Shown here in pieces: positions 2,644-45,869 of a DNA stretch of 64,000 nt (positions within the stretch are counted from its first letter, which is position 1; each line of letters begins with the position of its first letter). A program made the position numbers and the translations under genes. Under the pieces are notes generated by a model that ran no database searches, was not told the origin of the DNA, and saw nothing but the letters and a program-made list of their open reading frames with translations. The DNA comes from Escherichia phage vB_EcoM-UFV09, in sequence record MZ291552.2. One strand, written 5' to 3'.

Positions 2644-2673
2644 ATAGTACCATAGAAGAACAGGGATGTAAAC
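2644..2673 (-). promoter_or_regulatory. T4 early-type promoter
   Basis: On the minus strand: GTTTACA -35, 17-bp spacer, TACTAT -10; part of the recurring TGTAAACA(A/G)TTTTGTGAAA block seen on the + strand. Confidence 0.5.
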
Positions 2674-2806
2674 AGTTTTGTGAAAAATTTTTTAAAAAGT
2701 TTTGGGGAATTCTAGGGCAAGGAGGGGAAATTAAAGGATAGGATAATATATTATAAAGGGTAGAAACTAAATGATGCCTAGAGAGGCCTGGAAAGGCTTA
2801 GATACC

Positions 2807-2834
2807 AAAAAGCCCCAACCTTTTGGTCGGGACT
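2807..2834 (-). terminator. Rho-independent terminator downstream of the internal-protein-like gene
   Basis: Minus-strand hairpin AGTCCCGACC-AAAA-GGTTGGGGCT followed by a T run. Confidence 0.6.
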
Positions 2835-2841
2835 AAGAATG

Positions 2842-3315
2842 TTATTTGATTTGTTTAGCAGACCAAATGCGGTCTTTAATAATTTTTTGGATGTCTTCAA
2901 CATACTCAAGAGAATGAGCATGTGGGTTATCTTTAAAGCTATGAGCACGAGCTAGCTTTTGGCCTTCAGTTTTGATTACTAAAAGCTCTTTAAGGATAGC
3001 TTCATATTTGGAGATAATTCCTTTAACGATATTTTTTTCTTGTGCGACTTTAGGATCTGCTTTAGGAGCAGGTTTACCCGAAGCCTTTGCAAAAGCAGCG
3101 CCAGTAGCAACTAAACTTTTCCAGGCCATACTAACTGCATTTCCCGTAAATCCTTCCGCTTTCATGTCGCGTGCGAACTGGAATCGTGATTCATCAGAAG
3201 CATCTTTGTAAGAATATTTACCCGCTGCAATGGCTGCTTTTGCGACAGCTTGAATTTCGGTGCTAGATGCTTCATTTAACACCGCTTCATTTAAAAATTG
3301 AGTATATGATTTCAT
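2842..3315 (-). CDS. Internal-protein-like head protein with an N-terminal capsid-targeting sequence
   Basis: N-terminus MKSYTQFLNEAVLNE resembles the T4 internal-protein targeting sequence (MKTYQEF...), with LNE protease-type sites; basic, Lys/Ala-rich body; late promoter and AGGAAA Shine-Dalgarno upstream. Confidence 0.6.
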   Translation of the reverse strand: MKSYTQFLNEAVLNEASSTEIQAVAKAAIAAGKYSYKDASDESRFQFARDMKAEGFTGNAVSMAWKSLVATGAAFAKASGKPAPKADPKVAQEKNIVKGIISKYEAILKELLVIKTEGQKLARAHSFKDNPHAHSLEYVEDIQKIIKDRIWSAKQIK

Positions 3316-3351
3316 CTTATTTCCTGTTTTAATTCGTGGATTTAATATACT

Positions 3352-3359
3352 TATTTATA
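3352..3359 (-). promoter_or_regulatory. T4 late promoter (TATAAATA) for the internal-protein-like gene
   Basis: + strand TATTTATA is TATAAATA on the minus strand, about 35 nt upstream of the start at 3315. Confidence 0.55.
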
Positions 3360-3361
3360 CT

Positions 3362-3389
3362 AAAAAGCCCCAACCTTTTGGTCGGGGCT
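3362..3389 (-). terminator. Rho-independent terminator upstream of the internal-protein-like gene
   Basis: Minus-strand hairpin AGCCCCGACC-AAAA-GGTTGGGGCT followed by a T run; near-identical copy of the hairpin at 2807-2834. Confidence 0.6.
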
Positions 3390-3440
3390 AAGCCTTGCGG
3401 CAACCTTGTCGGGGTTCCACCTGCTAAGGCAAGTGTTTGT

Positions 3441-3532
3441 ACGAAACGCCGGGATTCGAACCCGGTTATTAAGCAGTTGACGCTACTCAATATTTTTAAA
3501 AGGCCATATCTCGACCATATCCGAACGTTCCG
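3441..3532 (-). ncRNA. tRNA-like element; possible stable small RNA or degenerate type II tRNA
   Basis: Intact T-arm (CCGGG-TTCGAAT-CCCGG) and a 7-bp acceptor helix (CGGAACG with CGTTTCG), but no canonical D or anticodon arm; no minus-strand ORF across 3390-3700. Confidence 0.3.
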
Positions 3533-3696
3533 TCAAAAACGCTACTCGGCTTACGGCAAAGATATTTCCTCGAATCGATAATTCGGTGCGCCGTTTCTGC
3601 TGTGATAGTAAAGAGCCAGAACACAGTAAAACTGTGGGAGGAAACTATACTCCAGGGAACATCAGTCCGACGACTTACCGGTAGCGACCCGGTTTC

Positions 3697-4047
3697 TTAG
3701 TATTCTTTTAAAGCATCAATTTGTTCACGGCGTTTACGCCATAAATCAATTGCTTCATAAGCAGATTCAGCATTTCGAATTAGCCGACATTTATATAAAG
3801 ACTTGTGATTTTGGTATTGCGTAGATAATGGAATTTTATCTAAAAGGTCTTTGCGTTCAAAGTATTCGTAACCATCTAAACCAAATGAACGATTTTTGAG
3901 AAATTGCCAATGACCATATTCGTTTTCGACATAAACATAATCTGCATGCTGATAAAGCAAATTAATTACACGTTCAGAAATAACAGTATCATTATGATTA
4001 AAATAGAATGTTAAATCATGAACTACTAAATAAACATTACCTTTCAT
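3697..4047 (-). CDS. Hypothetical protein next to the tRNA array
   Basis: 116-aa ORF immediately downstream (minus-strand sense) of tRNA-Arg. Confidence 0.55.
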   Translation of the reverse strand: MKGNVYLVVHDLTFYFNHNDTVISERVINLLYQHADYVYVENEYGHWQFLKNRSFGLDGYEYFERKDLLDKIPLSTQYQNHKSLYKCRLIRNAESAYEAIDLWRKRREQIDALKEY

Positions 4048-4065: not shown

Positions 4066-4141
4066 TGGTCGAGGCAGTAGGGATCGAACCTACGACCCAG
4101 GACTTAGAAGGTCCTTGCTCTTCCTTCTGAGCTATGCCCCG
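4066..4141 (-). tRNA. tRNA-Arg (anticodon TCT)
   Basis: Hand-folded cloverleaf: acceptor CGGGGCA with TGCCTCG, anticodon loop CTTCTAA, T-loop TTCGATC, encoded CCA. Confidence 0.8.
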
Positions 4142-4145
4142 TAAT

Positions 4146-4221
4146 TGGGGTGACCGATGGGAGTCGAACCCATGACTACGAGAATCACAATCTCGAGTTC
4201 TACCAACTGAACTACGGCCAC
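4146..4221 (-). tRNA. tRNA-His (anticodon GTG)
   Basis: Hand-folded: acceptor GTGGCCG with CGGTCAC, anticodon loop TTGTGAT, T-loop TTCGACT, CCA. Confidence 0.75.
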
Positions 4222-4335
4222 ATTAATACCTACTCCAACAATCATGATGTCTTCACACGAAATTAAGAGAAGAGTGATCAGTTCAACCCCTATAATCGCG
4301 TCAAGTAGATATTAATGTGACAGTTGTCACAAATT

Positions 4336-4410
4336 TGGCGGACGTGATAGGATTCGAACCTATAACCAATCGCTTAACAGGCGATCGCTCTGCCATTGAG
4401 CTACACATCC
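4336..4410 (-). tRNA. tRNA-Asn (anticodon GTT)
   Basis: Hand-folded: acceptor GGATGTG with CACGTCC, anticodon stem ATCGC/GCGAT with loop CTGTTAA, T-loop TTCGAAT, CCA. Confidence 0.8.
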
Positions 4411-4414
4411 AAAT

Positions 4415-4501
4415 TGGTGGGGAGTGATGGAGTCGAACCACCCGAGTCGCAATGACAATGAATTTACAGTCCACACCGCTACCTCTACGGGATAACTCCC
4501 C
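4415..4501 (-). tRNA. tRNA-Tyr (anticodon GTA), type II with long variable arm
   Basis: 87 nt; acceptor GGGGAGT with ACTCCCC; anticodon loop CTGTAAA; the anticodon stem relies on G-U pairs, so the isotype is less certain. Confidence 0.6.
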
Positions 4502-4507
4502 TTAATT

Positions 4508-4582
4508 TGGTGGCCCTGGGTGGAATTGAACCACCATCTGGCGATTATGAGTCGCTTGCTTGAACCTTCCAGCTACAGGGCC
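4508..4582 (-). tRNA. tRNA with CAT anticodon (Met, or Ile2 if lysidine-modified as in T4)
   Basis: Acceptor GGCCCTG with CAGGGCC, anticodon loop CTCATAA, T-loop TTCAATT; sits between Thr and the next tRNA where T4 has tRNA-Ile. Confidence 0.7.
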
Positions 4583-4583
4583 T

Positions 4584-4659
4584 TGGTGCTGATTGACGGA
4601 ATCGAACCGCCGACATCCTCATTACAAGTGAGGTGCTCTACCTACTGAGCTAAATCAGC
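4584..4659 (-). tRNA. tRNA-Thr (anticodon TGT)
   Basis: Acceptor GCTGATT with AATCAGC, anticodon stem CCTCA/TGAGG with loop CTTGTAA. Confidence 0.8.
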
Positions 4660-4664
4660 AAAGC

Positions 4665-4754
4665 TGGCGGAGGCGATAGGATTTGAACCTATGAATCGCC
4701 GGAGCGACTGCCGGTTTTCAAGACCGGTGCATTAAACCACTCTGCCACGCCTCC
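4665..4754 (-). tRNA. tRNA-Ser (anticodon TGA), type II
   Basis: 90 nt; acceptor GGAGGCG with CGCCTCC, anticodon stem CCGGT/ACCGG with loop CTTGAAA, long variable arm. Confidence 0.8.
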
Positions 4755-4756
4755 AG

Positions 4757-4830
4757 TCTCCATACAAGGATTTGAACCTTGGACCTCCTGATCCCAAATC
4801 AGGCGCTCTACCAAACTGAGCTACACGGAG
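4757..4830 (-). tRNA. tRNA-Pro (anticodon TGG)
   Basis: Acceptor CTCCGTG with TATGGAG (two G-U pairs), anticodon loop TTTGGGA; CCA not encoded. Confidence 0.75.
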
Positions 4831-4840
4831 TAAATTAAAT

Positions 4841-4914
<74 letters not shown>

Positions 4915-4919
4915 AAATT

Positions 4920-5006
4920 TGGTGCGAGAAGTGGGACTCGAACCCACAAGGAAATCATTCCGCAGCATTTTAAGTGCTGTGCCTTTACCAATTTGACCAT
5001 TCTCGC
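4920..5006 (-). tRNA. tRNA-Leu (anticodon TAA), type II
   Basis: 87 nt; acceptor GCGAGAA with TTCTCGC, anticodon stem CAGCA/TGCTG with loop CTTAAAA. Confidence 0.8.
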
Positions 5007-5007
5007 G

Positions 5008-5080
5008 CTGGGAATAAAGGATTCGAACCTTTGCATCTAGCAGTCAAAGTGCTATGCCTTACCAACTTGGCTAATTCCCA
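5008..5080 (-). tRNA. tRNA-Gln (anticodon TTG)
   Basis: Acceptor TGGGAAT with ATTCCCA, anticodon stem TAGCA/TGCTA with loop CTTTGAC; 1-nt gap to tRNA-Leu, as in the T4 Gln-Leu dimeric precursor. Confidence 0.75.
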
Positions 5081-6644: not shown

Positions 6645-6929
6645 TTACAAAAGATTTTTAGCAATAATTTTAAGCTGAGCTACTGAAATATGCTTGGCTT
6701 TAAACAAAGCAGTTTCTTCAGCAGGGGAGATAACGATTGTAGCACCATCTTTCTTAGCGGACCATCCATCACCCAGGTAAACAGTACCTTTGACTTCTTC
6801 GCCATCAACCAGGCTAATCATCGGTTTACCTTCACGTCCTTTGTTTGCTTTAATAACTTCAGAAGTAAGGGTCGCTTCAGTCAAAGTAGAAGCGTTAGTG
6901 GTTGAAGTGAATTCTTGATAAGTTTTCAT
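6645..6929 (-). CDS. ipI: Internal protein I precursor (head-packaged, injected anti-restriction protein)
   Basis: 94 aa with N-terminal targeting sequence MKTYQEF and LTE cleavage-type sites; sits next to 57B, the T4 ipI position. Confidence 0.85.
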   Translation of the reverse strand: MKTYQEFTSTTNASTLTEATLTSEVIKANKGREGKPMISLVDGEEVKGTVYLGDGWSAKKDGATIVISPAEETALFKAKHISVAQLKIIAKNLL

Positions 6930-45635: not shown

Positions 45636-45869
45636 ATGTTACTAGAATTTAAACAATTTCTTTATGAAGCTTCTATTGATGAATTTATGGGTAAAATTGC
45701 CTCTTGTCAAACATTAGAAGGTTTAGAAGAACTTGAAGCTTATTATAAGAAAAGAGTCAAAGAAACTGAATTAAAAGATACTGATGACATCTCTGTGAGA
45801 GATGCTTTGGCAGGAAAAAGAGCTGAATTAGAAGATTCAGACGATGATGAAGTAGAAGAAAGTTTTTAA
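45636..45869 (+). CDS. uvsW.1: UvsW.1 small acidic protein
   Basis: ATG at 45636 with GGAGA Shine-Dalgarno (the ORF-track start at 45624 is TTG); follows the terminator hairpin GGGCTTCGGCCC at 45611-45622. Confidence 0.8.
   Translation: MLLEFKQFLYEASIDEFMGKIASCQTLEGLEELEAYYKKRVKETELKDTDDISVRDALAGKRAELEDSDDDEVEESF

Follow-up and report, generated by a model that had tools for sequence, protein, structure and literature searches.

An accessory gene between rnaC and e.8 of a Tequatrovirus phage probably encodes an internal head protein in a self-contained late unit

We analyzed a 64,000-nucleotide (nt) stretch of the genome of Escherichia phage vB_EcoM-UFV09 (MZ291552.2), here called the window, and find that a small gene on its minus strand, the open reading frame (ORF) ORF157 (2842..3315), probably encodes an accessory internal head protein of the T4 internal protein (Ip) class, carried in a self-contained late unit and with a proposed anti-defense role. 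The 157-residue, 17.2-kDa precursor belongs to PHROG 2280 and begins MKSYTQFLNEAVLNE, exactly as in an earlier reading of the DNA letters (the original prediction). We are most confident that ORF157 would be targeted to the head and processed, and hold this to be likely; an anti-restriction or anti-defense role, argued by analogy, is put forward tentatively. In a nucleotide search vB_EcoM-UFV05/06/10/11 are 100% identical to the window and hundreds of Tequatrovirus genomes are 95-98% identical, and by this measure the phage is a Tequatrovirus.

The head assignment is carried by codons 1-15 (3271..3315, minus strand), which leader comparison and alignment mark as a putative propeptide, MKSYTQFLNE/AVLNE/A (slashes denote predicted cuts). 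Codons 1-10 (3286-3315) correspond to the 10-residue targeting sequence of T4 IPIII. Truncation and suppressor work on T4 IPIII found its first 10 residues, MKTYQEFIAE, to be enough for head targeting, with positions 4 and 7 determining targeting and positions 8 and 10 determining processing (PMC9026906). The ORF157 leader carries Y4, F7, L8 and E10 followed by A, and it differs from MKTYQEFIAE at 5 of 10 positions, none of them among those reported critical. When the 547 Met-start ORF candidates of the window were scored against MKTYQEFIAE (BLOSUM62; mean -6.3, standard deviation 7.0), ORF157 ranked second with a score of 25. Only the window IPI, at 32, outranks it; its gene ipI (6645..6929, minus strand; Pfam IPI_T4 at 1.3e-51, PHROG 'internal virion protein') served as the reference for the leader comparison. 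The third-ranked start scores 24, lacks F7, L8 and E10, and is regarded as gene 3 extended upstream in frame and not as a real start. A stricter leader-pattern search of the window ORFs returns ORF157 and the prohead core protein gp67 only, a match which illustrates that the motif marks prohead-core-targeted proteins generally and not Ips alone. The gp67-like protein is encoded at 45636-45869 (plus strand) and starts MLLEFKQFLYE/AS. The leader in the style of the internal proteins that the original prediction had proposed is thus borne out by rank, by the key residues and by conservation throughout the family.

The same leader contains candidate processing sites. The protease gp21 cuts C-terminal to Glu, with ITE-6 and LTE-619 as sites in Alt and LIE-9 as a candidate site in gp21 itself (PMC9026906, PMC5694885), and several gp21 sites per propeptide are common (PMC5694885). 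By motif match ORF157 has two predicted LNE/A sites, at residues 8-10 and 13-15, in line with the gp21-type L-x-E sites claimed for it. The two sites arise in the Tequatrovirus leader from a 5-residue duplication; relatives without the duplication have one site, aligned with E15. Every family member in the alignment has Glu at the E15 column, and the next residues are A, Q or G and then S; the expected mature N-terminus is therefore A16. The protein reads AVLNEASSTEIQAVAK from A11 and ASSTEIQAVAK from A16. In the AlphaFold2 model the predicted local distance difference test (pLDDT) score is below 50 at residues 4-15, as expected of a flexible propeptide.

The leader is a property of the family and not of this phage alone. 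ORF157 is matched in 511 phage records, and a chance ORF was rejected given these homologous records, the conserved length and the detected peptides. Word-indexed and exhaustive hidden Markov model (HMM) searches, the latter of 1.8 billion representatives, gave about 20 distinct relatives (13 proteins from the HMM search alone); the sources that could be identified are T4-like phages, and there was no identifiable cellular homolog among the relatives. Full-length relatives all start M-x-x-[YF]-x-x-F-[LV]-..-E, even those that are 25-50% identical or have another C-terminal half. M1, F7 and E15 do not vary in the family alignment, and almost every relative has Y or F at position 4. Examples of these starts include MKTYNEFLMTE/A, MKSYAEFLTE/Q, MLKFNEFLAE/G, MINFSDFLNE/G and MISFNEFV..ITE/S, as well as MLEYSEFLKE..CE/A (Yersinia fHe-Yen9-01), MKFKEFLAE/A (Klebsiella Jiaodavirus) and MKSFSSFLNE/G (Cronobacter Muldoonvirus VP8). 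An L-x-E site followed by A, S or G is retained even where indels have reshaped the leader, which apparently outlasts both divergence and domain replacement. The leader DNA is ~67% identical to that of T4 ipIII (hand count), without a long shared run, and because the DNA has diverged this far while the peptide is conserved, selection appears to act on the leader peptide, which would then be no relic of recombination.

The gene is bracketed by a 36-nt direct repeat (2802-2837 and 3357-3392; 34/36 identical, 94%) with a start-to-start spacing of 555 nt. The near-identical flanking element of the original prediction is therefore real; its quoted ends at 2834 and 3389 are 3 nt short, a trivial coordinate error, as the 31-nt repeat string given there spans 2807-2837 and 3362-3392. 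Read on the minus strand, both copies form hairpins (10-bp stem, 4-nt loop, then TTTTT) with centroid energies of -19.5 and -16.8 kcal/mol and z about -3.3 against shuffles, and a terminator scan calls both of them terminator-like. The plus-strand fold is weaker and has no T-run after it. The upstream copy, hairpin A (3357..3392, minus strand; stem 3389-3366, then TTTTT), aligns with the single T4 hairpin downstream of rnaC and is probably the intrinsic terminator of the tRNA/rnaD/rnaC unit, where it would shield ORF157 from upstream transcription. The downstream copy, hairpin B (2802..2837, minus strand; stem 2834-2811, then TTTTT), begins 5 nt past the stop codon and is predicted to end the ORF157 transcript. 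The T4-type late promoter motif TATAAATA (3352..3359, minus strand) comes immediately behind the T-run of hairpin A and lies 36 nt ahead of the ATG, and a Shine-Dalgarno sequence, AGGAA (3321..3325, minus strand), can be read 5 nt before the ATG. All of these parts, that is the terminators on both sides, the gene's own late promoter and its own ribosome-binding sequence, had been called correctly. The window contains 24 copies of TATAAATA against 9.6 +/- 3.0 expected, so that the motif is enriched as a class and a single copy alone is not significant; the copy at ORF157 gains its weight because it is conserved in other phages.

This conservation extends over several genera. We observe exact TATAAATA at the same position in Yersinia phage fD1, KarlGJung, Klebsiella phage phiKp_22, Cronobacter phage VP8, a metagenome contig and IMG/VR loci; the lineages with a hairpin followed by exact TATAAATA are the Tequatrovirus relatives, Jiaodavirus, Muldoonvirus and the one metagenome contig. 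In fD1, KarlGJung and the IMG/VR relatives the hairpin is that of the window. The Klebsiella phage phiKp_22 has another stem, GCCCCGTCTTCGGACGGGGC, ahead of TTTTTAGTATAAATA and the ORF157 homolog; in VP8 the stem GGGACCTTCGGGTCCC precedes TATAAATA and a two-gene unit with the ORF157 homolog second; and in the contig a related hairpin, TATAAATA and a small membrane ORF come before the homolog. The arrangement of hairpin and exact TATAAATA is kept in most lineages examined, and the stems are non-homologous outside Tequatrovirus and Mosigvirus. In phiKp_22, VP8, fD1, KarlGJung, the IMG/VR relatives and the contig the unit follows a tRNA or stable-RNA cluster and is closed by a terminator, and in the complete genomes among these an early promoter comes after the unit. 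Homologs in ordinary early operons had been named as an outcome that would speak against the original prediction; the homologs are not placed in this way. A 72-residue ORF of VP8, ORF72 (L007:2786-3004), begins MKSFTEFLTE/SADLTLTE/A and overlaps the start of the ORF157 homolog via an ATGA junction, which places two leader-bearing genes in one late unit.

The unit is present in some close relatives and cleanly missing from others. T4 has rnaC, a single hairpin and the e.8 promoter, and its alignment to the window shows one gap of exactly one 555-bp repeat unit; the T4 hairpin has its left flank in common with copy A and its right flank with copy B. T6 also lacks the 555-bp unit. The slot between rnaC and e.8 holds one ORF in the window, fD1 and G4507, and two in KarlGJung (BASEL Bas37) and Mosigvirus phiC120, where ORF157 is followed by an unrelated 187-residue ORF, ORF187 (L003:841-1404 and L004:3091-3654, respectively; absent from the window). 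ORF157 and ORF187 are separated by the same hairpin, and the pair is closed by a different hairpin with the same GGGCTTTTTGGTATCT tail. ORF187 starts MKTYAEFLTE/AAKLPSE, has a mature isoelectric point (pI) of 9.5, lies downstream of AATAAATA and not TATAAATA, and occurs in 165 phage records, including HP3, RB14, ime09 and Shfl2, always annotated as hypothetical; it is another candidate internal protein. In other genera the same slot holds different gene combinations. Comparison of the locus across genomes had been proposed as a check, and it upholds the idea of a swappable cassette, with T4 and T6 lacking exactly one unit and a second, unrelated leader-bearing ORF in the same slot elsewhere.

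States with zero, one and two ORFs would be expected if units came and went by recombination in the ~25-nt core that the repeats share. Experiments on the related PeSL elements have shown excision and integration through repeats, and the same logic has been proposed for Ip loci (PMC4122927). Loss in T4 and gain in the others are both compatible with these sequence data. A survey of insert sizes with flank-only queries was confounded by nearby indels (e.7, ORF116, segB), and no count was drawn from it. Two exact copies of the 20-nt hairpin core, and no more, are present in the 64 kb of the window. A dispersed mobile repeat was considered and rejected, as there are only these two window copies and the IMG/VR matches lie nearly all at the ORF157 locus. 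The exact hairpin with its T-run is also found once on a 251-kb IMG/VR viral contig (L014:8610-8634), in another context and with no leader-bearing ORF after it.

Past the leader, ORF157 is a small basic protein of its own family. The predicted mature form has 142-147 residues, ~15.5 kDa and a pI of 9.5-9.6, compared with 9.0 for IPI* and 9.65 for IPIII*. The AlphaFold2 model is all-helical (mean pLDDT 75): four helices make up an N-terminal domain (residues 18-71), and a Pro/Lys/Ala-rich linker (residues ~78-90; pLDDT below 50 at 81-86) connects it to a long helical hairpin (residues 88-154). PHROG 2280 is listed as 'unknown function' and every database name read for the family was 'hypothetical protein'. 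The IPI_T4 profile (PF11634), which scores the window ipI at 1.3e-51, gave no match to ORF157, and IPI* has neither structural nor sequence similarity to it. In an all-against-all BLASTP comparison of ORF157 with ORF187, DUF7412/fD1 g129, IPI, IPIII and VP8 ORF72, the likeness covers the first ~12 (up to 24) residues or is absent. Klebsiella and Yersinia relatives share only residues ~16-95 with ORF157 and differ in the C-terminal half, which suggests domain-level modularity within the family. Relatives from Klebsiella, Yersinia and Cronobacter (e.g. L005:2495-3028) have the leader and N-terminal domain (~16-80, motif AGKYSYKD..ESRFQFARDMKAEGF) with another C-terminal helical half. In several phages the ORF157 allele is frameshifted or truncated to 93-111 residues or split into two BLAST pieces; such broken alleles are consistent with a dispensable gene under fluctuating selection.

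A close homolog of ORF157 has been detected in a virion preparation. In the fD1 study (PMC8309999, Table S3; public virion data PXD026812), ultracentrifuge-purified virions were digested and six-frame translations were searched; under the strict threshold, g140 (67942-68415, 157 residues, 17.3 kDa, "not in T4") carries the PPAP mark. On comparison g140 proved 98% identical to ORF157, and the hairpins and TATAAATA of the window recur at its gene. The neighboring e.8 product (g139) is not marked PPAP in the same proteome. Absence from virions had been given as a reason to abandon the original prediction; the 98%-identical fD1 protein was scored as virion-associated, in a proteome whose low specificity is considered below. 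This detection shows expression and co-purification and not location inside the head. The UFV13 proteomics paper identified four gel bands only and is uninformative for ORF157, nothing usable was found in further Tequatrovirus proteome literature, and the fPS-2/65/90 paper contains no proteomics.

Taken together, these features suggest the following course for ORF157. Late in infection, RNA polymerase with the phage late sigma factor would start at TATAAATA (3359-3352), as its sequence and conservation indicate, and the transcript would cover ORF157 alone and stop at hairpin B, with hairpin A blocking read-through from the tRNA/rnaC region. Late-only expression is compatible with packaging because proheads assemble late. 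The 17-kDa precursor, judging from its leader, would bind the prohead scaffolding core via the N-terminal targeting sequence (Y4, F7), and gp21 would cut after E10 and/or E15 to leave a basic, all-helical protein of ~15.5 kDa in the head. By analogy, this protein may then be injected with the DNA and neutralize a first-line host defense, the likeliest target being a GmrSD variant, a type IV restriction enzyme of the kind inhibited by Ip1, Ip2 and Ip3. In work of 2025, Ip1 was shown to inhibit the GmrSD of strain CT596 and Ip2 and Ip3 two other GmrSD variants, and all genes of "the two Ip loci" have been proposed to target GmrSD-family variants (PMC12373910). IPIII acts from the cytoplasm without its leader (PMC9391042). 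Inhibition of a first-line defense against glucosyl-hydroxymethylcytosine DNA by injected ORF157 is the most likely function by this comparison, although we hold it with less conviction than head targeting and processing. The unit itself, to judge from the comparison of genomes, appears to be gained or lost by homologous recombination in the 25-nt flank core, giving the empty (T4, T6), single (window, fD1) and double (KarlGJung, phiC120) states.

Several observations weigh against this reading, in its structural or its functional part. The fD1 proteome has low specificity: 113-137 of the 277 phage proteins turned up in it, DenV, NudE, lysozyme and thymidine kinase among them, and the detection of g140 therefore adds only modest weight. 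Pfam, NCBIfam and PDB sequence searches with ORF157 gave no family and no PDB match, only a Pfam match at noise level, and Foldseek searches of the model against BFVD and PDB returned uninformative fold matches with no hint of function; the profile and structure search suggested in the original prediction thus gave no informative family or fold match. Mosigvirus phiC120 has only AATAAATA in place of exact TATAAATA. T4 ipI, ipII and ipIII lie behind early-type promoters and not TATAAATA, so that the regulation of ORF157 is unlike that of the classical Ips, and the unit is better described as a predicted late-only variant of Ip expression than as a copy of the T4 ip arrangement. N-terminal cleavage and injection of ORF157 are predictions. 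Finally, the seven genes ip4-10 gave no reproducible hits against eight active GmrSD systems (PMC12373910), and the step from 'Ip' to 'GmrSD inhibitor' is therefore not automatic.

Different explanations can be given for parts of the same evidence. ORF157 could be targeted and trimmed in the manner of gp67, gp68 and the Ips and yet have no role after injection; it might, for instance, condense DNA as a basic protein or assist in building the scaffold or core. The leader pattern that also matches prohead core protein gp67, the basic, helical character of the protein with its long helical hairpin, and the lack of similarity to any known inhibitor found here would all suit such a protein. However, the absence of the gene from T4 and T6 and the truncated alleles mean that it cannot be required for head assembly; all three T4 Ips with the leader signature proved to be restriction inhibitors (PMC12373910); and a presence/absence slot with unrelated leader-bearing neighbors is typical of arms-race genes. 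We consider this account improbable. Still further down we place an unpackaged cytoplasmic late protein, with a leader likeness that comes from shared ancestry of the start region or from chance and a virion detection that is carry-over. Many non-structural proteins were indeed present in the fD1 preparation, but the product of neighboring e.8 was undetected there. The leader does depart from MKTYQEFIAE at 5/10 positions, but these are not the positions reported critical (PMC9026906), and the peptide leader is kept at 25-50% identity where the DNA is only ~67% identical to the T4 ipIII leader. The L-x-E site before A, S or G is likewise retained despite leader-reshaping indels, and a carry-over protein seems very unlikely.

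As to the flanking repeats, the three occupancy states (0, 1 and 2 leader-bearing ORFs), the recurrence of the same hairpin at the ORF157/ORF187 boundary and the variable slot contents of other genera argue for a recurrent shuffling device, in keeping with the excision and integration via repeats shown experimentally for related PeSL elements (PMC4122927). The repeats could also have been left behind by one event only, be it an insertion or, from an ancestral state with the unit, a deletion in the T4/T6 lineage. This would explain that the hairpin sequence is limited to the ORF157 locus in the window and, nearly always, in the few IMG/VR hits, and that the T4 hairpin is a simple A-left/B-right chimera such as one deletion between direct repeats gives. 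A single event is the less likely account, though of the alternatives weighed here it is, together with the broader reading that follows, the least improbable.

Beyond an accessory Ip-class gene, the slot between rnaC and e.8 might be a third, hitherto unrecognized late-promoter Ip locus that keeps its position in several Straboviridae genera, with ORF157, ORF187, VP8 ORF72 and others as injected inhibitors of defenses outside those of Ip1-10, and with ORF157 modular. Under this proposal, residues 16-80 would be common to Escherichia, Klebsiella, Yersinia and Cronobacter phages and swappable C-terminal helices would set target specificity. Candidate targets would include the GmrSD clusters that restrict T-even phages and have no known inhibitor; several GmrSD variants active on T-even phages are of this kind (PMC12373910). 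We regard the proposal as speculative and rather unlikely as a whole.

The neighborhood of the unit follows the T4 order. On the minus strand come, in this order, gene 1, 57A, 57B, ipI, trna.4/.3/.2-like ORFs and eleven tRNAs, and then a 116-residue ORF, rnaD- and rnaC-like stable RNAs, the ORF157 unit and e.8 through nudE. Upstream of hairpin A, the homolog of T4 rnaC (species 1) lies at approximately 3440..3578 (minus strand), coordinates that derive from the T4 alignment. Downstream, the next gene is e.8 (2612-2337, minus strand, by gene order), behind an early-type promoter, TTTACA-17-TACTAT with TG (2644..2672, minus strand), called by the promoter/terminator scan and by T4 alignment; hairpin B and this promoter have the same layout as the single T4 hairpin-to-e.8 intergenic stretch. 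The tRNA genes at 4066-5080 (minus strand) number eleven (Arg, His, Asn, Tyr, Met, Thr, Ser, Pro, Gly, Leu and Gln) where T4 has eight, and no segB homing-endonuclease gene lies inside the window tRNA cluster (4066-5080). The 116-residue ORF (3697-4047, minus strand; PHROG 3355, unknown function) sits between tRNA-Arg and the rnaD-like RNA, which are directly adjacent in T4, and is thus another small indel of the tRNA region. The rnaC/rnaD-like region (3400-3700, minus strand) has no Rfam match even at E<=1; its rnaD-like part is markedly unlike T4 rnaD. Part of the region is labelled 'tRNA-Lys(ttt)' in phage G4507, and ARAGORN makes no such call in the window.

These results have practical consequences for annotation and testing. 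ORF157 is carried by about 500 sequenced phages, of which many are candidates for therapy, and has no annotation other than "hypothetical"; recognition of the rnaC-e.8 slot as an Ip locus would improve this annotation. The order of a hairpin, TATAAATA and an M-K-x-Y-x-x-F-L-x-E leader offers a rule for injected-effector candidates in Straboviridae. T4 and T6 naturally lack ORF157 and are usable as test phages. A specialist may be unsurprised by the assignment, but ORF157 is immediately testable, and panels of orphan GmrSD systems exist.

Leader-bearing Ip genes in shuffled, polymorphic loci were reportedly described by Repoila et al. in 1994, the class being known since then, and Ip or IP-like genes of T-even phages have also been treated by Mullaney and Black in 1996 and Silas et al. 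in 2025. The arrangement of the ORF157 unit can be compared with these genes and with stem-loop elements found elsewhere in T4-like phages. In the PeSL/PmSL elements (Arbiol 2010; Comeau 2014, PMC4122927), as here, stem-loops flank accessory ORFs and the indels of close relatives map to them, and the proposed mechanism is likewise homologous recombination or mini-circle excision and integration. The hairpin copies of the window flank the indel exactly; hairpin A precedes the late promoter, and ~139 nt separate hairpin B from the e.8 early promoter downstream of it. The stem-loop here is tied to the late promoter TATAAATA and not to a sigma-70-like early or Mot-box middle promoter, and the repeat is locus-specific whereas PeSL is dispersed through the genome. 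The ORF157 unit would be a late-promoter variant of the PeSL idea and not a canonical PeSL.

Pfam DUF7412 (fD1 g129, 'head protein') is similar to ORF157 in being a 157-residue T-even protein with a leader, MKTYQEFITE/AA, and in its detection in fD1 virions; however, the two have no similarity past the first 12 residues. The gene g129 (L009:2786-3259) matches DUF7412 at 5.7e-96 and lies upstream of denV and e, in the slot of T4 ipII/ipIII, and DUF7412 is very likely an Ip family. The window IPI has a weak DUF7412 hit (residues 1-50) that covers the shared leader, which is probably its cause.

Compared with Ip1-3 and Ip4-Ip10, ORF157 has the same M-K-x-Y-x-x-F-[IL]-x-E leader with a Glu site and the same kind of small basic mature part of unrelated sequence; Ip1-3 have also been characterized by a shared leader and unrelated mature parts (PMC12373910, PMC3012670). 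Like the class, ORF157 is dispensable, and its locus is polymorphic, with shuffled units; its fD1 homolog was scored as virion-associated in the proteome of low specificity. It differs in its mature sequence, which makes up a separate family (PHROG 2280, no Pfam) not called Ip in any of the records read, in its location at rnaC-e.8 where the described Ip loci are ipI and ipII-ipIII, and in its late promoter behind a terminator where the T4 ip genes follow early-type promoters. Three aspects appear to be new: a family not annotated as Ip, which may equal one of Ip4-10; a third locus, rnaC-e.8, which lies outside the two described and which T4 lacks; and a terminator coupled to a late rather than an early or middle promoter. 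In every feature that can be compared from sequence ORF157 agrees with the Ip class, and it would be an unannotated member of that known class rather than a new kind of system.

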